A stretch of DNA of 33,216 nucleotides, taken from contig NMRA01001261.1 in NCBI GenBank assembly GCA_002633005.1, forward strand, positions 1-33,216, read 5' to 3'. A program made the position numbers and the translations under genes. This document shows, piece by piece, positions 5,137-32,739 of this stretch. Position 1 is the stretch's first letter. The number at the start of each line of letters is the position of its first letter. Below the pieces are notes generated by a model, which made no database searches, had not been told where the DNA came from, and worked only from the letters and a program-made list of their open reading frames with translations. This stretch comes from Phoronis australis (lineage: Eukaryota; Animalia; Phoronida).

Positions 5137-6307
5137 CTGGTAGTTTTCTGAAACTGCTAAAACTCTATCCGAATCTGCCGGAAGAGCTTTGGGCGGTTTA
5201 ATTAATAAATTTAAAAAGAATAAAAATATGAGGTACAGAACGTTCACTACATTATTTAATGCTTGTGTTGTGCCTGTTAGAGATTATTGTGTAGGTGTCT
5301 GGGGCGGCTCTAGTCTACAGGATTATGATGTCATTCAGAATAGAGCCGCGCGATTTTTCTTGGGCGTTCACAAATTCGCTCCTAATCATGCTGTTACGGG
5401 TGACATGGGGTGGGAATTCCCCAGTGTTAGGCGGAAAATTGAGCTTTTGAGAATGTGGAATCGTATTATTAATTTCGAGGATGATAGACTAACATACCGA
5501 ATATTTTGGTGAGACTACACTACTTGTACTAATAATTGGTTTTCTGAAGTCTAGAGCATTTTTGAAGAATTAGGGATTTCGGATTGTTTTCATAACTTAC
5601 GTTCAGTTAATCTGTCTCACTGTAAGAATATTTTGCATGATTTAGCCTGTAATTGGTGGTTGTTTGAAAGCCGTTCGAAACCAAAGTTAAGAACCTATGT
5701 TTTGATGAAGACTGTCTTTGCAGTTGAGCCTTACGTGCATTTAGACTTAGCTCGGCCTACATGTAGTAGGTCAATTCTTGCTCAAATTAGAACCGGAACC
5801 CTACAGCTATTGGTTGAGGTTGGGCGTTTTCGTGTTCTCTAGATTTTGATGATAGAATTTGCTGTCTTTGTCACACTGGTCAGATCGAAACTGAACTACA
5901 TTTTCTGTTTGAGTCCCCGTTTTTCTTAGATGCCAGAAACACCTTTTACTGTCAAGTTGAGATTAAATATCCACGATTCCGTGCAGAAAGCTGTGAAAGT
6001 AAATTAATTACAATCATACAAAAAGATGTTATTAGAAAAACTTCAGTTTTCATCAAAAATATTTTTGAGGTAAGGAAAAGTTATATTTATTTATGATCAC
6101 TTTTATCTCGGCCTTCTCTTTCCGGTCCTCTTGCGATGCGTGTACACTTGTCTTTTCTTTTTTGTATCATGTATCTAAAGTGACTTATAAGCCCCGTGGA
6201 GGGCTGGGTGTTCCTAGTCTTTGTAAGTATTCATTGTTTAAATTCATTTGAACACATGTCACTATAATAAAAAGTTACTTACTTGCTTACTTACTTACTT
6301 ACTTGCT
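5137..6307 (+). mobile_element. 5'-truncated, decayed non-LTR retrotransposon (RTEX-like LINE): ORF2 C-terminus, 3' UTR and microsatellite tail
   Basis: Translates to LFNACVVPVRDYCVGVWG, IQNRAARFFLGVHKFAPNHAVTGDMGW, KPKLRTY, RSILAQIRTG, VEVGRF and a degenerate C-terminal Zn-knuckle (ICCLC..IETELHFLF), with in-frame stops. AATAAA at 6266-6271 is followed by (TTAC)n at 6275-6307. Confidence 0.85.
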
Positions 6308-6497: not shown

Positions 6498-8232
6498 TAG
6501 TCTTCAATTGCCCAAAAGACCAAGTCCGTTTTTGTGTTGGCATTGCTTCGGAAATCGTCTTAAGTTAAGGTTTAACAAAGAGAGAATTATGAGTTTCTGA
6601 GTGTTTCACTAAGGCTTAGATTAAAATTCACATCTTACCAGCAGCTTCTGTTTTTTCATCGTCATTCAGATTCCACTTTCTTTAAAAAATGAAGTAATTT
6701 TCTTCATTGCACAGTGAAGCAGACGACGGAAACGGAATCGTAGTGCGCAGCGCCACTGCCGGTCACCTGGGATATCGCGGGAGAGCTTATACTTAGCCAC
6801 AGTTCCATTACGATTGAGCCGCGTTCCGAATTTNNNNNNNNNNNNNNNNNNNNNNNNNNNNNNNNNNNNNNNNNNNNNNNNNNNNNNNNNNNNNNNNNNN
6901 NNNNNNNNNNNNNNNNNNNNNNNNNNNNNNNNNNNNNNNNNNNNNNNNNNNNNNNNNNNNNNNNNNNNNNNNNNNNNNNNNNNNNNNNNNNNNNNNNNNN
7001 NNNNNNNNNNNNNNNNNNNNNNNNNNNNNNNNNNNNNNNNNNNNNNNNNNNNNNNNNNNNNNNNNNNNNNNNNNNNNNNNNNNNNNNNNNNNNNNNNNNN
7101 NNNNNNNNNNNNNNNNNNNNNNNNNNNNNNNNNNNNNNNNNNNNNNNNNNNNNNNNNNNNNNNNNNNNNNNNNNNNNNNNNNNNNNNNNNNNNNNNNNNN
7201 NNNNNNNNNNNNNNNNNNNNNNNNNNNNNNNNNNNNNNNNNNNNNNNNNNNNNNNNNNNNNNNNNNNNNNNNNNNNNNNNNNNNNNNNNNNNNNNNNNNN
7301 NNNNNNNNNNNNNNNNNNNNNNNNNNNNNNNNNNNNNNNNNNNNNNNNNNNNNNNNNNNNNNNNNNNNNNNNNNNNNNNNNNNNNNNNNNNNNNNNNNNN
7401 NNNNNNNNNNNNNNNNNNNNNNNNNNNNNNNNNNNNNNNNNNNNNNNNNNNNNNNNNNNNNNNNNNNNNNNNNNNNNNNNNNNNNNNNNNNNNNNNNNNN
7501 NNNNNNNNGGAGAGCCTATGCTTAGCCATAGTTCCATTACGATTGCACCGTGTTCCGAATCTGACACTTGAAATTAGATCTGAGCCCCTCCCCCCAAACA
7601 CACTAAAACTGCACACATTTAAATCTTGTTTCAGCTGTATAATGTTAATTACCGGGGTTAATTAGTAAACTCAACATTTCCCTACGCTCTTGCTGTTTTT
7701 TTTTTGCGGCAGCCAAGTGGGGGGGAGGCCTGGGCCCCCCTAAATCCGCCTGTGTATATGTAGTTGTCTGATGTGATAGTATGTGATAGTATGACGGTTT
7801 GTTTTGAACTTTTTTCCTCAACTTTCTTTCTATATTTGTGTTATTTCAATACGATCTTTAACAGAACAAGCACATTTTTGTGGTGTTTAGGTAGATTTGA
7901 ATGACCATTCTAAATGTCATTGGGCGATACTTACATATTATTTTGACCAATTAGAAGTTTAAAAGAAAATATTCTATGATTATTGTAGAAATTATTTTTA
8001 TGTTGTTGATTTCTTGTGAGATACTATCAACTGGTTGTCTATTAATCAGTGGTTATTTAGTTTAATATATTCCAAAAATAATTCGTGGGGAATGTTCAAT
8101 GGGTTTGTAATGTTGATTTCCCTAAGGCAATATTTTACATCTTTTTGTATGACCAATTTTGAGGTATGTGGGATAAAAGATTAATATTATTATAGAAATG
8201 CTTTAATATTGTTGTTGATTTCCTGCGTAATT
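6498..8232 (+). repeat. Large dispersed repeat (blocks A and H), left copy, spanning the assembly gap
   Basis: 6498-6833 and 7510-7595 are reverse-complement matches to 23952-24354. 7762-8232 is a reverse-complement match to 22395-22854. Confidence 0.85.
6834..7509. other. Assembly gap (676 N)
   Basis: Run of N. Confidence 1.
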
Positions 8233-13199: not shown

Positions 13200-13660
13200 G
13201 AAGTCTAAAAAAATTGTTTTTAGAAATGGTGGCACTTCGGAAGTCACTCAGTATAAGTCGTAAGCCAGTGTAAATAGCTTGGCCTGTTGTCACTCCAAAA
13301 CTATCTTGGACAAAGGCGACACTTTCAAAGCAAGGGAGAAAATGTCTTATCGCCATTTCTAAATTACGTAACCGATGTCAAAACCTACCACGCGGTCTAT
13401 GTTTTGAGTTATTAGATAAAATGATTATCCATCAATTTGTTATGGGGTTGAAATCTGAGGGTATTAACAGTATAGAACGTTTTCACGTGAAATTCTGTAA
13501 AATGGTACTTGGTGTGAGCACTTTTTGTTCCAATGTAGCCGTATTGAGTGAATGCGGGAGTTTCCTACTGTTTACAAAACATTTTTATCATATGTATAAA
13601 ATATTGGTTTAAGGTACTGAAATTGCCATCGAGCAGGTATGTCCGTGCTGTGTATAACAA
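13200..13660 (+). mobile_element. Heavily decayed RTEX-like LINE fragment (end of RT domain)
   Basis: Frameshifted motifs KSKKIVFRNGG, TPKLSWTKA, LDKMI..CYGVEI, IERFHVKFCKMVLGVSTFCSNVAVLSECG. Confidence 0.75.
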
Positions 13661-14860: not shown

Positions 14861-15757
14861 CCCTATGGGTAGTTACAACAATTCAAGATAGGATAAGCAT
14901 GGTAATATTTTTAAACCCCGAAAGGCTTCGCTAAAGAATTTATCATTGGCAACTTAACAGCAGCAAAATCGCGCGTTAAACTTAAGTACTTCTCAATGCT
15001 TTGAAAGACGTTTTGGCATTCATTTTGAGAAACTTTTAAGCTATTGTGTCGCTTGGGTCTCCAAGGGTTATGTGTTCCACAAAAGTCTTTTAATATTTTA
15101 TCGACTAACTTGGAATATCGACTGTCATCATAGACAATCGATCTTTTCATGAGATAACCCCAACGCTAATATTTGAGATTTTGTTACCCCAACACCTACC
15201 GGTAAGCGAGCTTCAGCCAGACTGTGGCTAACCCGTGCTAATCCGGCGGAGCCTTTGGTGTCAATGCCTAGAAATTCGCTGGATACTCTTGGGTAAAGAG
15301 TGCACTGATACGCCGTAAAAAGTAACAATTGTTTAAAGCGTAACAACTGCTACGTTTTACGTCATTGTTGCATTTTACCATAGATTATAGACAACAGATT
15401 CGGCATATCCTTACGTGCTGGGCTGAACTCTCCTGACCTTTCTGATGCAGTTTCCGGTTAGTGTATTTTGACGAGAAATACTTGCATCTACTTTACTGTC
15501 CAAAACAACGAAAAAAATATTAATTTCGGCATTGAAACGCTTTTCAAAGTTTTTCAATAGTAGAAGTGTTGGTATTGTGAGTACTTTTGGCAAAGCTACT
15601 GGTAATTAATTACAAAATTCAAACTTCGGTGCCGACTAATTGTGTCGTCTGCTTGCCCAATAGCAGCATAATTATCGGACAATTTTTGATTTATGGTTCA
15701 CGTAGGCCTACTGAGAAAACTACGGAAGTATGTTTATAAATCAACATTCTCAAGTGA

Positions 15758-15804
15758 GCAGTTCTTCTGGGAAGTGTTGAGTGGCCCTTAAAAGGGCCGT
15801 TGGT
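15758..15804 (-). terminator. Replication-dependent histone-type 3'-end processing signal (stem-loop plus histone downstream element), orphan
   Basis: Minus strand: accaac GGCCCT TTTA AGGGCC ACTCA acacttccc AGAAGAACTG. The 6-bp stem/4-nt loop at 15783-15798 matches the metazoan consensus, and a purine-rich element starts 15 nt after the stem. Confidence 0.85.
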
Positions 15805-15818
15805 TGTAGCTATAGCGT

Positions 15819-15844
15819 GAAATGGTTCATAAAAGAACCGTTGA
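15819..15844 (-). promoter_or_regulatory. Second, imperfect histone-type stem-loop
   Basis: Minus strand: tcaac GGTTCT TTTA TGAACC atttc (15824-15839). The loop-closing pair is U.U instead of U-A. Confidence 0.7.
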
Positions 15845-15849
15845 ATAAT

Positions 15850-15906
15850 TCAACACAGTATAGTCCGATTACCTCTCGTCGTCAGTCTCCAAAGGTCGTC
15901 CGCCAT
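15850..15906 (-). CDS. Candidate 18-aa micro-ORF MADDLWRLTTRGNRTILC upstream of the tandem histone stem-loops
   Basis: ATG in strong Kozak / YY1-like context (aacaagATGGCGG), with TGA 10 nt before the first stem-loop. Too short to show coding signal. Confidence 0.25.
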   Translation of the reverse strand: MADDLWRLTTRGNRTILC

Positions 15907-18534
15907 CTTGTTTCGCGTGCAGCGCTGCCACGCGGGACTTAGCGTTCCAATTTGGAACGCTCGTCTGCACGTTAGGTACTAACCTCTCGGGAGAAATACG
16001 CATGGAAGAACTGAGACTAAAATTAATGCATTTACCGACTGTTTTTTTGAGACCACTTAAAAACTTGTTGATTTTACTAATGCACTTTTTTGTTCATTTT
16101 CAGAAGATATTTTCGAAATTAAATTTTCTTCAGACGGAACAAAAAGCAACCCAGGGATTGTTTATGCAATGTATCTATTTGTCCCAGGCACTAACCGACA
16201 TCTGTTAGGCCAAAGGAAAAACGCAGCAGACAAATGGAACACGCTGGGTGCTTAACAGTTTCGGCCCACGCCTTGGTCATCAAAATATTGTTCACTTGTT
16301 TTTTTATTGCAAAACACAGTACTGAACTCAACATTTATGTTGAAAATTTTGGTTAAAGCATTTTGAATTTATTTGAAGAAAATTAAAATACTTGAATTGA
16401 TAGAGAATGGCCACCAATAAAGTAAAACATTGACTTTATTTCACTATATTGCATTTGTTACATACAACACAGCATGACATAATCAAAAATAAAAGAAGAG
16501 ATTGAGCAATAAAATTCAAATGCAACTTGGGTATTTATTTATTTATTTATGAATGCAGAAGCCTGTTAAAGATGAGAAAAAATCAAACAATACAATTATG
16601 GGTAATTTATTAGAACAATTGTATCGAGGTTCAATGATCAACTTCCGCCTACCAAGTCTCAAAGGCTTACAGTTCTGTTTTGGCTGACAAGGTGTTAACA
16701 GAGAATGAAGAGAAACTGAAAAGAAAAAGAAGGACAGCAGAGATAAGTGATGTTAAGAACAACAAGAGCAAAAAGTCAAATAAAGAGGTCACAAATACAA
16801 AATAAGTAAGGTCTGCCTGGAATAAAACAATTGTGATTTATTTTCCAGAACTGAAATTCTAAATCAATTTTAATCGATTTAAAAATCGATATCATACCAG
16901 TAAAACAGTTTGTGGTTGAAGTAGAGTTGCTGTAAACCACTTTCCACTATTTTCTTGGCCTTTTTCTGTGTGGTTTTCTGTCCTTTCAAAAGGCGGCAGC
17001 ACATGACGACCATAGGTGTCATTATAAAATGGCTGCCGAAAACCAATGCACAGTTGAACAACTCGGCTTAAGTAAAAGAAAACGTTTGAATCAACGAATA
17101 CTATATATTTGTGAGAGTTAAATCAAGTCCTATTCAGATCATAACTTTGAAGTGGAATAATTGGGTGAGTAAGACAACAAGCCGGTTTTATGCTTAGGCG
17201 GACGACTATAGGGTTTCGGAGTGTATACCATGCTCACTCAAGTACTGAAGGTCCCCTTCATTCAAGTTTTCATCTGGGAAGGTTGGGTGAAAACAGAAGA
17301 GATGACAATATCGATGACAGTTGTAACACCATATATAAATGTTACCGTTCTCCAACGTTATCACGAACCCTGCCTTTTTCAGTTCTTGTTCCTGGATTCA
17401 GAAGTAGCCCTGAACCATAGGCAAAAAAGACATACTACGAAAAAGAAACAAATTGTGAAAATCATCGCCTTCGTGTGATTACGTGTTGCTGTCGCCAGAC
17501 TGTTGTTCCCGTTCCCAACATCAATGTCGGAAATCGACGTTACAAATGATGGAAACTTGTGTCCTTTGTTTCTAACTTTTAACCCATTTTTTAAGAAAGG
17601 GGTGTACTGATTTTGTCAAACGTTGATAGAGCATAACTTGGTTTTTACAATGCATTAATTGTGTTGAATGCATTCATATTAGGTGGCTTCATTGATTTGA
17701 TCAGAAAATAAACTAAATGCAACACAATAAAGCTTTGAAAATAAATAGAACAGTAAAACAGGACTCCCTAAAAATCGAGCTGATTTCGAAAACTTTGCGC
17801 CATTGGTGATCTGATTGGTTCATGCATTTACGGCGGGAAAATAATAGACAAAGTATCGTGCAAGTGTGCACTGTAGCAACACTTTGTATCTTATTCCTAC
17901 TTGGCCAATCTGTTGTTACAGTAAATTTCCTTATTTATGCCCATCCTGATTTGACTGCAACTTGAGCTTGTTGGGTTCTATCATATATTGGGTTGGCATT
18001 GGTACCCACGTGATGCTTACTCAAATGGGCTTCATTTTACCGAGTATTTCAAATTGAGGTGAAGTAAATAAACAAAGTGGATGATTATCACCACCAGAAT
18101 TTCATCATTAGTATCTTTTGCCGGGTGCTCAAATTTTCTCTGAGACTAGGGATTGTCAGATTTGTAAGGTAGAAGTGTTTCGCTGGATTTCCAGGTCTGT
18201 GGCGTTATTTATACCGGACCAAAATTAAAACAACAGACCTTTGTTTAAATCAGTAGCTGCATGATACACATTTATTAGACGTGCGCAGGCATTGCACATT
18301 AATATATAGTTAAACCAAGCTGAGGAGCTTGAAACCTGATTCAAGGCAATTTTTGGCAGTGGTATTTTCTGAAAAATGCTCGTAAGTCGACAACAAAGTT
18401 TGATAGCAATGCACTGCAGCTTTGTAGAAACGCTGTTCATAGGTTACAGATGTGTCACAGAGCGTAACTTTGATGAATTCTAGCTTACGATTTCACCTGT
18501 TTCGGAGACCGGGTTTCAACCACTTTTGGGCTAT

Positions 18535-18601
18535 AATAATGCCCCCTTCCTGAAGCGGATTTTTCTAAGCACCCTGGCCGCTTATTAGGGCGCATACGGT
18601 A
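18535..18601. mobile_element. Single terminus of a Tc1/mariner (Tc2/pogo-like) non-autonomous element
   Basis: Ends ...ccctggccgcttattagggcgcaTACGG-TA, a CCGTA terminus with TA TSD. Partner end not found. Confidence 0.4.
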
Positions 18602-19322
18602 ATATTTCAGAAGGGCAATACTTAGTGTCCTTTATGCACGGGATCCTTGTATTACATTAGGAGTGGGATTGGCTCATCATGTACCCTACAGGTGGCATCG
18701 CCTTCGTATATAGTCTTATTGCTGAAACAACTGCCATTCACGTTGACACAAGAAGTAAGCTTTTCTTCTCAAAGCCGATTATGGGGTCTTCGGATGGTAT
18801 GGGAGCTAATTCTTTTGCATTTCGCGTGTGTGGCCGAACAACCGGCCACACAGTAGCCGACCATAATTAGCAGATGACGTACTTGCCGGAAGTTGCACCA
18901 GAAAATTTAGCCAGGTGTCGCCAGTGAATAATGACGCAAGGGCTTAATGCGTAACTTCACAGATTTCGTCCATTGAAAGTATACGGAGTTGGCGGTCCAT
19001 GTACTATAGTCTATGATTTTACGTTGCTAGACCTCTCTTAAAATGTAAGAAGTTGTTACAAGGTTACAATTTACGTCGAATGCGCATGCGAGAAATGTCC
19101 AATTGTTACATTTTACGAAAGCGACGTCGTATTTCATGACTGAGTTTGCGTGGTATTTGTCACAAAGAAAAACGGTTCACACGCTTTACGTCTTCTTTGT
19201 CGGATTGTATGAATGAAATCCTGCCAAATGTGCCAGCTCGAATTTATAGATTTGTCCCTATGTGCTTTTCATTGTTTCTAAAACGAATAGTTTGTTGGTA
19301 TAGTCAAAAATGTTCCCCGTGC

Positions 19323-19818: not shown

Positions 19819-20430
19819 GCATTTGTTTTGTACAAGCTCTTGGTTTTGCTCAAAATGTGTCACATTGGGATCAAAAACACGTTTGGCCCATTCGCGATAT
19901 GGACTACTGCCTACGAATCCGTCGGGACAAACTTGTACGGCCTTATACCCCGCTTTATTCTAGATCTCAGGCAGGCCCTCAAGAACAGACTGGAACTCAA
20001 GTTCGGCAGTGCATATCCCAGGCAGTTGCTATCACATACCCCCAAAGTCTAACCAACGCAGGACTGAGCTCATTTCAGAAAACGGAGGACCGAAATAGTA
20101 ACGCTAAAACAACCTTCGTTCCTCTCGGGTCGTCATGTAAAGTGGACAAGTTACCAGCACGAATTGCCAAGTTTTTACCAACCACCTTATTGTGTTTGAC
20201 TAACCTCACCGGAATGGGCTCTTCTGGGTCGACGACCTAGAATTTATCTTGCCCACTAATCAGGGCGCGAATTCAGATTTCCACGGTACATCATGTATCG
20301 TCGCCAGCTGGCAGGAAGGCAAGTGACCTTCAAGGGAACCGGAAAGCATAAAGCTATTTACAGGCTGGGATCGAGGACGTAGTCAAGCCGCTGGCAGTTA
20401 TCTCTCCGCGGCGGATAGGTTGCTGTCTTT

Positions 20431-21078
20431 ATGGAGAACCTTTACTGCTCCTTTGCTCGTTTTATTTTCATCGTATTTTGTCTTCATTCCTGCCACAACC
20501 ATCTAGCAGTTCAGCTAGCCACGGCGCCAGCCGTGAAGGGAACGTCAATAGTGTTGAGTGTTCTTTCTGATACTGACATAACAATACTTTTTGACAAGCC
20601 TCAGAACCAAACTGTCATCGACCATTATGAGCTGATTTGTGTGAAGTATACTGCAGGACACTTTCCTACGGGAGACAGAGTGGTCTTAAAAGCCAACGCA
20701 ACGGATAGAAACATAAGCGTTTCTTACTGGGAAACCATGACTGTGTCTGAAATCCAGTTGCTTGGGACACTGGTTCCAGAAACTCACTACAAGTTTTTTC
20801 TGAAGACTGTAGCGACAGGAGGGCACAACGACAGTGCAGAGGTCGAAATACCGCCAGGAATAGTGCGTACCCGTGAAACACTCGCCACACTTGATTGCTG
20901 GGATAGCATACGTGCAGGGATACAGTTCACTGGACTGCTTTTGGCGATGGTTACAGCGGTGTATGTGCTAAGCCAGGTTTGTTTGGACTGGTTCTGCGAT
21001 AACCGCCGTTACTATATGATTTGGACAGACTATGGAGTTATAGACCAACATGAAGGAGTTAATAAACTGCAATGTTGA
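20431..21078 (+). CDS. Fibronectin type III domain single-pass membrane protein (215-aa ORF; single-exon gene or terminal exon of a larger gene)
   Basis: Uninterrupted 648-nt ORF with an FN3 pattern (SDTDITILFDKP..IDHYELIC...LVPETHYKFFLKTV..GG), four N-glycosylation sequons (NQT, NAT, NIS, NDS), a hydrophobic helix GIQFTGLLLAMVTAVYVLSQVCL and a ~30-aa tail. Confidence 0.8.
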   Translation: MENLYCSFARFIFIVFCLHSCHNHLAVQLATAPAVKGTSIVLSVLSDTDITILFDKPQNQTVIDHYELICVKYTAGHFPTGDRVVLKANATDRNISVSYWETMTVSEIQLLGTLVPETHYKFFLKTVATGGHNDSAEVEIPPGIVRTRETLATLDCWDSIRAGIQFTGLLLAMVTAVYVLSQVCLDWFCDNRRYYMIWTDYGVIDQHEGVNKLQC

Positions 21079-23951: not shown

Positions 23952-24465
23952 NGGGGGGGGCTCAGATCCAATTTCAAGTGTCAAATTCGGAACACGGCTC
24001 AATCGTAACGGAACTATGGCTAAGTATAGGCAAGGAGCCTAGTACACTCCTTGGTATTGGCTCTCCCGCGATATCCCAGGCGACCGGCAGTGGCGCTGTG
24101 CACTACGACTCCGTTTCCGTCGTCTGCTTCACTGTGGAATGAAGAAAATTACTTCATTTTTTAAAGAAAATAGAATCTGAGTGACGATGAAAAAACAGAA
24201 GCTGATGGTAAGATGTGAATTTTAGTCGATGCCTTAGTGAATCACTCAGGAACTCATATTTCTCTCTTTGTCAAACCTTAAGACGATTTCCAAACCAATC
24301 GCGTCATTAATGCCAACACAAAATAACGGATTTGGTCTTTTGGGCAATTGACTATACGAACTGATTGCACAAAATATAAAAAGTGTAATAAACATTACAA
24401 AAAGAAGTAGGTTTCGCACGCAAACGCTGTGAACCATAAACAAGTAGGTCTCTCAGTATCAAATT
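23952..24465 (-). repeat. Block A, inverted copy of 3712-3823 plus 6498-7595
   Basis: Long reverse-complement matches such as ccgtttccgtcgtctgcttcactgtg and gaagaaaattacttcattttttaaagaaa. Confidence 0.9.
24031..24053. mobile_element. 23-bp P-element-like footprint
   Basis: CAAGGAG-cctagtaca-CTCCTTG flanked by gtatagg / gtattgg. Absent from the paralogous empty sites at about 6785-6797 and 7513-7526. Confidence 0.75.
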
Positions 24466-28791: not shown

Positions 28792-29398
28792 TTAAAATAC
28801 TGCATCACAATGGGACGTCCTGCCCACTGACCGTTGCATGCTCGAATACATCGGATGCCACCAGGGCAACACAACCAGTGAAGTAATGGGGTCAATGACG
28901 ATCTCGTGGTTGTCACCGGCAATGCTAAACACCATCTTCAGCTTGTAATAGCGATAGGAGACTGGGCTGACAGACATAACGATCTGACTCAACTTCATAC
29001 CCATAGCTGACGGAAGGTGGATATAGTTCACGCACGATGCCTGTATCACATAACAACCCGAGTCTTCGTTTGCATACAAGTCACATGTCGTGTCGTTCTT
29101 ACGCTTGTAAACCAGGCACGACGACCTGCTACCATCCTTTTTCAACTTGAAGTAATACTGCCACTTGTTAGTGTTCCTCATACAATGCCATGTCACTGTA
29201 CACCTGAAGTCTTTGTTGGTTAACCTGTCCACTTCGAATTGAAAGGGAGCGTAGTCCTTTAACCGGCACCTAAGAGGCTCGTACAAGTAGTGCAATGCCT
29301 TCACCACTCTGGCTTGTAAGCCGTACCTTGTGTCTAGACATCCAAGTTTGAGATCAGATGGTAAATTTGTTCTGTTGGCTTTCGATGGTGTATAGAAT
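28792..29398 (-). CDS. TMEM183A: TMEM183 orthologue, last coding exon
   Basis: Acceptor ttgattgcag|A (phase 2), then (R)FYTPS..LPSDLKLGCLDTRYGLQARVVKALHYLYEPL...WQYYFKLKK...DLYANEDSGCYVIQASCVNYIHLPSAMGM...IVIDPITSLVVLPWWHPMY. This matches my recollection of TMEM183 motifs (LRACVIRSLYHMYEPF, WEFNFKFKK, VILDPVHSVRLFDWWHPQY). Stop TAA at 28792-28794. Confidence 0.92.
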
Positions 29399-29880
29399 CT
29401 GCAATCAAGTAAATTCTGCGACTTATGTAGAAGCGACTTGCATCAGCATTCAGTCAACAATATAGCAGTGGGAAATTGATTGTATAGTTTAACAAGAGCC
29501 ACTCGGGGCAGATCAAGCGACAAAGGTTATGACAAGATCTCACCAATACAACATGGCTGATGAGTGAAATCTTATTTTCTGATATTTCCAAATAAGATAC
29601 GAAGGACCAAATTAATGATTTTCAGCGTTCAAGTTCTGTTACCATAGCTACTACCAGATAATATTTTGAAAAATTCTGGGTATTCGCCACAATGTTAGAA
29701 GCTGAGGGTATGACAATTAACTGAATCGCGATGCAGGAGTGACCGATTTCATTCAATATTATCATGCCAAGGCCATTTCGATTAGATTCGTAGTGTCAAT
29801 TTTCGGCATTAGAAGACTTACAGAATTACCACACATTTGTATCTTTTTACGAGTATTATTGAGATATTGAACAAATAAAC

Positions 29881-30044: not shown

Positions 30045-31082
30045 TACAGGACTCATTCATTAGTTGTAATCTTATCACATTTAACAATTTTATTCCTAAA
30101 ATTGTTATTAGTGGTTGGTAAGTTAGCTACTTATATTTGAGAAAAAAACGAATTACTTTCACAAACAAGAATCAAATAAATGATAATCAAATTCCTCCTA
30201 AAAAGTATCTAATCGAGTTGCTAAAAATGTGTATTGTCCACCCCTATGAGAAAACCTAGAAAACTGCAGTCACATTGCTTTTGGATCACGCAAGTATGAG
30301 ACAGTCAGCCTAAGTTAATGAACCTTTTCTCAACAAGCTGCTTGTTCATCCCAAGCCGACACTACACAAAATGGCTGCGTTGCAAAGTTACGGACATCTG
30401 TGATTATGAGCGGAACATGCTATTATCACCAAATTGAGTAGGCTACTTCGTAACGCAACCACGCTGTGGAATGAATATCCCGACTGACTGATCGGCCTGT
30501 CGGGAAACAGTCGTGTCCTTATCAGTTTGACAGTGGCAAACCAGTGTTTACATGGTCCAGCTCTCTTGGTGTCTGCTTTCATCTGATGCTCATGTAATCC
30601 AGCAATTATGTTGTAAACAGCACGCCTGACACTAACCGATATTAAAAAAATACTAAAGGCAAACAACTTTCAACAACTGCCGTGAAGCAGATGTGTTTTG
30701 TAAGAAATACATCAACAAAAAACTTTGAATGGAGAAAAACGGGTGACTGTCAGAGAAATTAGATTAATGAATTTTCTGAGACAAAGTGTGAGCTCTGACC
30801 ACAGTATTGTGTACAAACACAAAAGGCTTGCTTGACAAGTTTAATCAAGCGTCATTCTAGATTAGATTGTGATAGTGGAAATTTCTTGAGTTTACACCCT
30901 ACGCAATGTCATCAAAAGAGCAAAAAAATTAACACAAATGCCATGATTCATTAGACAACAGAAATCACATCTAACCCGAGTGAAAAACACATTAAAACCA
31001 TTTCCAATAAATCACACAGGTAAATTGTCTAAATCCAAAATTATTTTTGATGGATGGCAGAGGCATACTAGCTTCAAGTTAC

Positions 31083-31263
31083 CTTTTATAGATGTTCCTC
31101 CAGAATGAGGCAGTGTGCACCACCTGGTGAGAGCCGCAGCACAGACATGCGAATGTGGCCACAGACTCTGGGTGGATGTAATTGGATAGTATGAACCAAA
31201 CATCCTGTGGATAGACTAGGCCAGTGCTCGGTTCTGTGGTACGCCATTTAGAACAAGCAAGAG
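31083..31263 (-). CDS. TMEM183A: TMEM183 orthologue, penultimate coding exon (F-box-like region)
   Basis: Acceptor ttttctatttttcag|CT and donor AG|GTAACT. Encodes GLVYPQDVWFILSNYIHPESVATFACLCCGSHQVVHTASFWRNIYKR, similar to TMEM183 [44 protein letters not shown]. Splices in frame to 29398. Confidence 0.9.
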
Positions 31264-32739
31264 CTGAAAAATAGAAAACCATGCATTGGTTTGAAGACAG
31301 TATGAATGTTCCTAGACCAGTGCCTGGCTGCATGAAACAGTCCCAAATCTACTGGGTATTTTTGGAGTTGTGAAAACATCGATTGCCCTTTCTTTCATTG
31401 TTTTAGTTTAATTACTAAATCAACTTTTGACTTTGATACAAATTGAGAGTGACCTCTTCCTTGAATTGTCAATATTATCGAAAATAAGTAGGGGTCTTTT
31501 CATGCAACACCCTCAACTTAACGACTGAGTCCCTATTTATTTTCAATGAACTCTAGGCTCAGTTTTTAGTTATATTTTATTAGAAAATGTCATTAATCAA
31601 AAAGCAGCTCATAATAAAGATGAAATAATAGAAAAATATTGCATCTGTGAGTCCATAAAGACACAAATACGCCAAAAAGATTAGAGGCCTTATTCTGCTG
31701 AGTCCCTATTTGGGACTTTCATGCAACCAGTTAAAGGGATCTGTTTCATGAAAAGTGTCTGAATTCTTAAGAAAGAAATTTGCTCTTATGAAATAGCTGA
31801 AAAGGATTAAGCCAACTCACTGTCAGCGTATTAGACTCTAGTTTGGAAATAATTTAAAGGAAGTTTCTCAGTAACTAGGAGTTATACGTAGATTCTCAAG
31901 TGAGATTTAATTGTTTTTCAGAAATATAGTCGTGCGGAGCGTAGGACCAAATTTCAATCTTAAGTTGCTTTTCGTGAAATAGATCCCTGTAGATGCATAT
32001 AGTGCATTTGCCTATTGAATATTTAGTCCAAACACAAAAAGTCCCGAACAGTATAGCTTTGTTTTTTTTTGTTTTTGTCCAGCTGGTTGCTTGTACAGTC
32101 TGCTCTTCATGGTTTTGAACTGTGTTCAAGTAAAACAGACTCACCCATGGAAATCAGTGTTTCTGCACAATTTTGCAGAATTGTGTCAGTTTTTTATTGT
32201 GTATAACATGGATTTTATCTAAGAGAAGTTAGCACTTGAAAATTTTACACAGTCGTTCTAAGGATCATTGGTGTTGAACAATTGTTTCTGCAATTGTATA
32301 TACTCCATTTCAGAGTCGTTCTACAACAGTTTGAGTTAGACATCATAAGCTTTGAAAATGCAATAACTGAATAGAACATGGAGGACATTATAAATAGCCA
32401 CCAGGAGGCACTGCACCAATGGAATTTGCCCAAAAGTTAACATGGGTCTTTCATTTTTTAGAAAAGCGAACCTTATTAATAAATTTCATGCAGATCAGTT
32501 GCTCAGTAGAGTCAACATAAAGAGACTAGTTTTAGCCACTGGTAATGAAATGGATATCGAGCAGCACTTTGCAAAAATTTCGAAAACTTCAAAATTCCAG
32601 TCCCGAGCCTGGAGTCTGATGCCATAGTACTCAAAACTGAACCCAGAATTATTTTCGACTTTTCCTATTCCTCTTTTGTACAAACTCATGATAAGTGCCT
32701 CTTATTCTGTGTGTGACTACATTGTCATTTACTTAGATG

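Follow-up and report, generated by a model that had tools for sequence, protein, structure and literature searches.

Features of the locus

The window (the whole stretch of 33,216 nucleotides that was analysed) carries on its minus strand a histone-type RNA 3' end signal, made up of two hairpins, a predicted cleavage site and a candidate downstream element, together with the decayed body of a small PHD-finger gene and a nested insertion, all within a larger cassette (Table 1). The PHD copy in the window is a dead pseudogene that has been split by the nested insertion.

Table 1. Positions of the signal, the PHD gene and the insertions in the window
Feature	Position	Strand	Basis
Whole cassette, 3.25 kb (about 1.9 kb minus the nested insertion)	15594..18838	.	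Other copies of the repeat around it lack the cassette
Candidate purine-rich histone downstream element, AGAAGAACTG	15759..15768	(-)	Sequence
ACTCA, with predicted cleavage after 15778	15778..15782	(-)	Sequence; site placed as in histone mRNAs
Hairpin 2, canonical histone stem-loop (6-bp stem, UUUA loop)	15783..15798	(-)	Rfam Histone3 and fold
Hairpin 1, histone stem-loop with top pair mismatched in the window copy	15824..15839	(-)	Fold, pattern scan, reads
PHD gene end: its final two codons and the stop codon	15850..15858	(-)	Loose ends at 15855 in X10 and X5
"Micro-ORF", 18 codons, a junction artefact (15 codons in the insertion, 1 spanning the junction; the PHD gene contributes the last 2 and the stop)	15850..15906	(-)	
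Nested insertion, multi-copy, non-coding, 1363 bp	15861..17223	.	Imperfect terminal inverted repeats; TA duplication 15859-15860 / 17224-17225
Decayed body of a standalone PHD-finger gene, about 100 codons	17224..17530	(-)	Pfam, tblastn, profile; 5' limit approximate
Two CCAAT box pairs, possible promoter	17802..18002 (17818, 17806; 18002, 17991)	(-)	Motif listing

Elsewhere in the window, 31082-31348(-) and 28795-29442(-) hold what we take to be two exons resembling TMEM183, for which Pfam gives a weak F-box-like match (E 0.094). A 219-codon frame at 20419-21078(+) has a weak match to fibronectin type III (E 0.011) and a hydrophobic stretch near its end. Decayed frames at 5144-6096(+) and 13274-13612(+), which received no Pfam support, presumably resemble the C-terminal part of LINE reverse transcriptases, and an assembly gap at 6834-7508 lies between pieces of a repeat that is also found at 23953-24351.

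A histone-type RNA 3' end signal

The histone-type RNA end signal at this locus is real. Rfam Histone3 matches 15803-15757(-) with 36.0 bits (gathering cut-off 34, E 4.3e-07) and is the only Rfam family to reach its gathering score anywhere in the window. Scans for chance occurrence were negative: a search for the hairpin pattern with at most one mismatch returned 2 matches where 0.08 were expected, a number reached by 0 of 100 shuffles, and the signal folds with a z-score of -3.89 (0 of 200 shuffles were equally stable). The original prediction of such a signal is thus confirmed, and the coordinates and spacings that it gave (ORF at 15906-15850, hairpins at 15839-15824 and 15798-15783, ACTCA, and an element at 15768) are all present in the sequence, as is the paired CC/GG versus TT/AA change by which the two stems differ. 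The proposed tandem arrangement of stem-loops holds in part, as hairpin 2 is a canonical 16-nt stem-loop at gathering score, whereas hairpin 1 in the window copy has five pairs and a 6-nt loop, its top U-A pair being replaced by U-U; hairpin 1 is canonical in the RNA reads. Despite their differences, both hairpins keep the 5' AAC flank, the stem and the loop.

Hairpin 1 starts 10 nt past the stop codon, and a 25-nt spacer separates the two hairpins. Only hairpin 2 has a purine-rich element of its own, which begins at 15768, the 15th nucleotide past its stem. Seven of the eight letters at 15767-15760 are the complement of the 5' end of human, not host, U7 as printed in PMC11417402.

No histone coding sequence accompanies the signal, in agreement with the original prediction as far as tested: none of the 74 stop-free frames of 15700-18950 matches a histone family in Pfam, and the lone Pfam match at E ≤0.01 among them is a PHD finger. 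A decayed histone gene upstream of the hairpins was rejected on the same comparison. With no histone family among these 74 frames and a PHD gene upstream, the locus does not qualify as a replication-dependent histone gene.

A PHD-finger gene displaced by a nested insertion

In frame 17397-17209(-), Pfam recognizes a PHD finger at E 1.9e-4 and 21.8 bits, under the cut-off of 24. A tblastn search of the window with the related protein P0002 aligned to 17508-17281 (66% over 76 aa, E 1e-29), and by profile the window-type PHD matches PHD family A3 with a probability of 99.2. The window copy contains in-frame stops at 17481-17479 and 17400-17398 and no in-frame ATG; of its Cys ligands, the first pair and one of the last are missing. 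The CCAAT pairs lie approximately 280-470 nt upstream of the gene, and the motif listing shows no TATA box in the interval.

RNA data connect this gene to the hairpins. At least 31 reads of data set X10 and a contig of X5 exit at 15855 into a 30-mer whose final 19 letters, compared by eye, are those of 17223-17241 (the X5 contig has one mismatch there, a synonymous Gly change). Read through this uninterrupted junction, the PHD frame closes on C-x2-C and reaches the same stop codon, which lies 10 nt ahead of hairpin 1; relative to these reads, the window copy is 9 nt short, i.e., by one Cys of the final C-x2-C pair. Since reads join the hairpins directly to the end of the PHD gene, the hairpins are very probably its own 3' end. 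The uninterrupted junction also identifies 15861-17223 as an insertion with a TA duplication, which pushed the body of the PHD gene 1.4 kb from the hairpins. Hence, the signal is not "orphan," as had been thought when the upstream PHD at 17508-17224 was missed, but part of a PHD-finger gene from which an insertion has separated it.

The two ends of the nested insertion align at 18 of 25 letters, TA included, and a 10-nt subterminal repeat at 15895-15904 recurs inverted at 17206-17197, near the other end. Coverage rises sharply to the right of 15860, and at 15857-15859 many reads run out into unrelated flanking sequence (agreement with the consensus 0.37-0.68 in the listed raw-read rows), a diversity that marks the edge of a multi-copy repeat. 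No Pfam match falls inside the insertion among the frames of 15700-18950. The element is MITE-like, being multi-copy and non-coding, with imperfect terminal repeats, a target duplication and an empty site. In X11, about 80-100 reads enter and exit into fixed other sequences at 15878-15985, with depth of about 200-fold on one strand; this pile-up is one transcript from another locus that contains that piece of the nested insertion.

The 18-codon ORF, which had been proposed as a coding part or S-phase micropeptide, is not supported by this structure: codons 1-15 lie in the multi-copy insertion, and the first four overlap its 10-nt subterminal repeat. We also considered that the ORF might be the first exon of a spliced gene whose intron contains the hairpins, as in an autoregulatory scheme. 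A donor-like AG/GTAAT exists, yet this idea was rejected: no joints were listed in the RNA reads, no convincing exons were found downstream, and the ORF sits in a repeat.

RNA reads across the signal

RNA data over 15550-16150 comprised 580, 557 and 481 reads (X9, X10 and X11, respectively) and 17 contigs (X5). About a fifth of each raw RNA run was covered, X9-X11 were chosen by species label, and the read evidence consists of the 24 of 80 loose ends and 40 of 103 variants that were listed. The signal is covered approximately 27-56-fold in X9 and X10. Strand bias differed among runs (X10 towards one strand, X9 balanced, X11 low and opposite).

The base at 15829 that pairs the top of hairpin 1 is present in 27 of 27 reads in X9, 40 of 42 in X10, 5 of 5 in X11 and in the X5 contig, and the mismatch in hairpin 1 is therefore private to the dead window copy. 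For hairpin 2, no variant occurs among the 40 of 103 listed. Among these same 40, the signal region (97 nt) has two variant positions, against 19 for the 166 nt downstream of it (Fisher P = 0.008), while near-fixed differences alone (1 in the signal versus 7 downstream, 40 of 103 variants) do not differ significantly (P = 0.26). The hairpins show signs of selection.

The RNA end predicted at 15778 is not visible in the reads: no depth drop or pile-up was listed there in X9, X10 or X11, for which library selection is unspecified. In X10, for example, depth with the first mate on the plus strand was 33.9, 36.4 and 35.3 in the bins from 15801 to 15739. Unbroken depth at 15778 speaks weakly against efficient cleavage in these samples. 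The argument is weak because, with library selection unspecified, cut RNAs may be lost, and the reads may represent read-through, several copies, introns or DNA.

Relatives of the PHD protein

A first protein search with a 58-aa piece as the query confirmed 0 of 17 candidates. The window PHD frame, with X at the internal stop, matched eight proteins among 1.84 billion representatives. Six of these are small Cys/His proteins; the other two (P0006 and P0009) were dropped as short repeat matches. Of 936 candidates, a profile search retained 29 proteins at E ≤0.001; most are 106-111 aa long, and one is named from the bivalve Dreissena polymorpha. These proteins have an acidic N-terminus and a C4HC3 pattern, the ligands of which are complete in the family, whereas those of the window copy are incomplete and its match is under the Pfam cut-off. 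Of five family proteins scanned, two (P0004 and P0020) exceeded the cut-off for Pfam PHD_NSD. A structure model of the family is confident (pLDDT 84.3), PHD fingers head its fold matches, all of them weak (best E 0.11), and its Atlas neighbours are mostly PHD clusters, with scores <0.9.

Eight metagenome loci (L001-L008), which derive from two assemblies and are not independent, encode members of this family. Directly downstream of the PHD gene, six of the eight carry a transposase-like ORF with DUF7869, in which three Asp-bearing motifs fit a DDD triad; we take this type, with its upstream PHD ORF, to be Sola. The PHD gene in the window is likewise likely to be transposon-derived. At three loci (L002:2165-2172, L004:2341-2348 and L005:180-187), the PHD stop and the ATG of the transposase-like ORF behind it are at most 2 bases apart, a coupling that resembles that of prokaryotic genes but occurs here in an animal transposon. 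Reverse-transcriptase-like frames at L004:1270-2119 adjoin the PHD gene in its middle, which looks like a further nested insertion. No histone hairpin was found in any of the eight loci, and the combination of PHD and hairpin was accordingly not seen beyond this species among them. AATGCCGAA, common to the window and L002, was set aside as it occurs at 3 unrelated places in the window.

In a tree of 26 rows (P0005, P0007, P0008, P0010-P0012, P0033, P0036 and P0040 were omitted as near-copies, partial or extended sequences), the window type (P0001-P0003) forms a separate long branch at a distance of 2.26 from the transposase-linked family, with support of 100/99. With so long a branch, the element type to which the window PHD itself belongs is presumptive. 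A last search for further members of the window type confirmed 2 of 10 candidates, leaving P0002 and P0003 as the only close relatives. Both look damaged too, and no intact window-type PHD gene was seen.

Three scans of viral contigs confirmed no relatives of the PHD protein, and no viral gene was found among the 74 stop-free frames of 15700-18950. A link to Polintons or viruses was rejected, as these scans of viral contigs yielded no confirmed PHD relatives. Hairpin searches of the viral contigs returned 0 matches to a 21-nt pattern and 11 to an 18-nt pattern, mostly in phage-like ORFs or with imperfect stems, and these were treated as chance. Four viral contigs (L011, L014, L017 and L018) have one common sequence with a near-histone hairpin that includes one stem mismatch. 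In prokaryote genomes, 0 of 312 candidate stretches were confirmed.

The surrounding cassette

Reads in X9, X10 and X11 (18-23 per listed loose end) exit at 15590-15593 and skip 15594-18838, indicating that the cassette is absent from other copies of the surrounding repeat. The skipping reads take at least three variant forms, and enter sequence resembling 18841-18870 (25 of 30 letters in an X11 row, by eye). A possible CAA duplication flanks the cassette (15591-15593 and 18839-18841). The cassette is either an insertion, perhaps with this CAA duplication, or a long form of a repeat whose short forms have lost it, and its behaviour is likely that of mobile DNA. The earlier suggestion of a short non-histone transcript or mobile cassette is therefore upheld as regards a mobile-looking cassette that contains no histone gene, but not as regards a transcript of the 18-codon ORF.

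No terminal inverted repeat at the ends of the cassette scored above shuffles (best 40, shuffles 26-54). Searches by tblastn with the transposase-like ORFs of L002 and L005 found no transposase in 15594-18838 (the best match, at E 0.003, lies elsewhere), and the cassette, having no transposase ORF, is not an autonomous DUF7869 DNA transposon. A perfect 10-bp hairpin at 18827-18852, followed by GTAG, straddles the proposed right end of the cassette, and 7 nt at 18851-18857 recur in inverted form at 15595-15601; these may be Helitron-like or terminal features.

Origin and possible use of the signal

We consider it fairly likely that the hairpins and downstream element end a small transposon-derived PHD gene in a likely mobile 1.9-kb cassette, intact copies of which would give rise to a non-histone mRNA processed by SLBP and U7. 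Transcription of an intact PHD copy would start from the CCAAT region. SLBP would bind both hairpins, the downstream element at 15768 would pair with U7, and U7-guided CPSF73 would cut after 15778, yielding a poly(A)-minus mRNA with two hairpins and a PHD product of about 100 aa. Such a message may be under S-phase or oocyte-type control, like histone mRNAs, and its product may serve a transposon family as an accessory factor that recognizes histone tails in newly made chromatin. Because the hairpins lie behind the PHD stop, where the related elements have their transposase-like ORF, the gene would have lost its link to the transposase and acquired a 3' end of its own. More tentatively, and with somewhat less than even confidence, we propose that a transposon-derived PHD chromatin-reader gene gained a histone mRNA 3' end with two SLBP sites and a U7 site, and that the message for its protein is poly(A)-minus and replication-coupled, which would make it a natural non-histone coding substrate of the U7 snRNP.

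Alternatively, mobile DNA (e.g., of a Helitron-like kind) may have picked up a PHD fragment and the 3' UTR of a histone gene by chance and spread the chimera passively, the PHD message never having used the signal. Helitrons capture genes, and a perfect 10-bp hairpin does straddle the proposed right end of the cassette; moreover, all three window-type proteins look damaged, the hairpins are missing from relatives, and RNA reads continue through 15778. Nonetheless, we regard a chance chimera as unlikely, since a remnant of histone coding sequence is absent from the 74 frames and the join sits just 10 nt past the PHD stop. Both hairpins, while differing from one another, retain stem, loop and 5' AAC flank, hairpin 1 is canonical in expressed copies, and the signal has fewer variants than the downstream DNA (among the 40 of 103 listed).

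A domesticated host gene or gene family, encoding an S-phase PHD protein with a histone-type end, would account for the distinct, well-supported long-branch subfamily (100/99), the CCAAT pairs upstream, the 27-56-fold depth of the signal in X9 and X10, and a cassette with neither transposase nor terminal repeats. The window would then hold a dead allele or paralogue in an immobile block. This is improbable given that each of the three raw-read runs contains reads that skip the entire block, that several haplotypes are present, and that just two close relatives, both apparently damaged, occur among billions of proteins. Far less probable still is that sequence just upstream drives an SLBP decoy or a short transcript containing the 18-codon ORF. 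The ATG context and spacing are as originally described and deep reads cross 15865-15990, but that depth is due to other copies of the insertion with diverse flanks, and 31 of about 42 X10 reads at 15855 go into the PHD gene. In addition, two of the three variants listed within the ORF (by eye, among 40 of 103) alter the amino acid.

Comparison with known systems and implications

The preferred reading, a PHD gene with a histone-type end, shares with histone mRNA 3' ends (RF00032, SLBP, HDE, U7 snRNP, CPSF73) the AAC 5' flank, the stem-loop, ACTCA, a purine-rich element 15 nt downstream, and a signal placed close behind the stop of a small gene. It differs in that the ORF encodes a PHD finger and that there are two hairpins, of which the second alone has a downstream element. 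With the DUF7869 elements that have an upstream standalone PHD ORF (L001-L008), it shares a homologous PHD protein of about 108 aa. Those elements have a transposase-like ORF a few bases past the PHD stop (L002, L004 and L005) and no hairpin, whereas the window gene has no transposase, carries hairpins behind its stop, and sits on a separate long branch.

According to PMC5054213, histone mRNAs appear to be the sole mRNAs processed by this route. A connection between U7 and mobile DNA is described in PMC11417402, where U7 snRNA represses human HERV1/LTR12 elements. There, too, mobile-element sequence is complementary to U7, although the 15-nt HDE-like motifs act on transcription and SLBP-type stabilisation is not needed; in the window, a full layout of hairpin and HDE ends a coding gene. 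The literature searched, which excluded subscription journals and Repbase, yielded no work that reports this kind of end on a non-histone or transposon gene and none that describes this PHD family. A term search of the accessible text of bioRxiv 10.64898/2026.10.14.759114 gave 0 occurrences of "non-histone" or "transpos," and the accessible parts of PMC13525598, 10.64898/2026.06.11.731563, PMC6875170 and PMC5751038 hold nothing on such a gene.

For genome scans, the locus illustrates a trap in which a nested insertion makes a histone-type signal look orphan and fakes a micro-ORF. The cassette in the window also offers a concrete candidate substrate for SLBP/U7 processing. If the preferred reading is true, mobile DNA can tap the SLBP/U7 snRNP route, which has been held to finish only histone coding RNAs, and a chromatin reader would be timed to DNA replication or oocyte storage, free of poly(A)-linked control.
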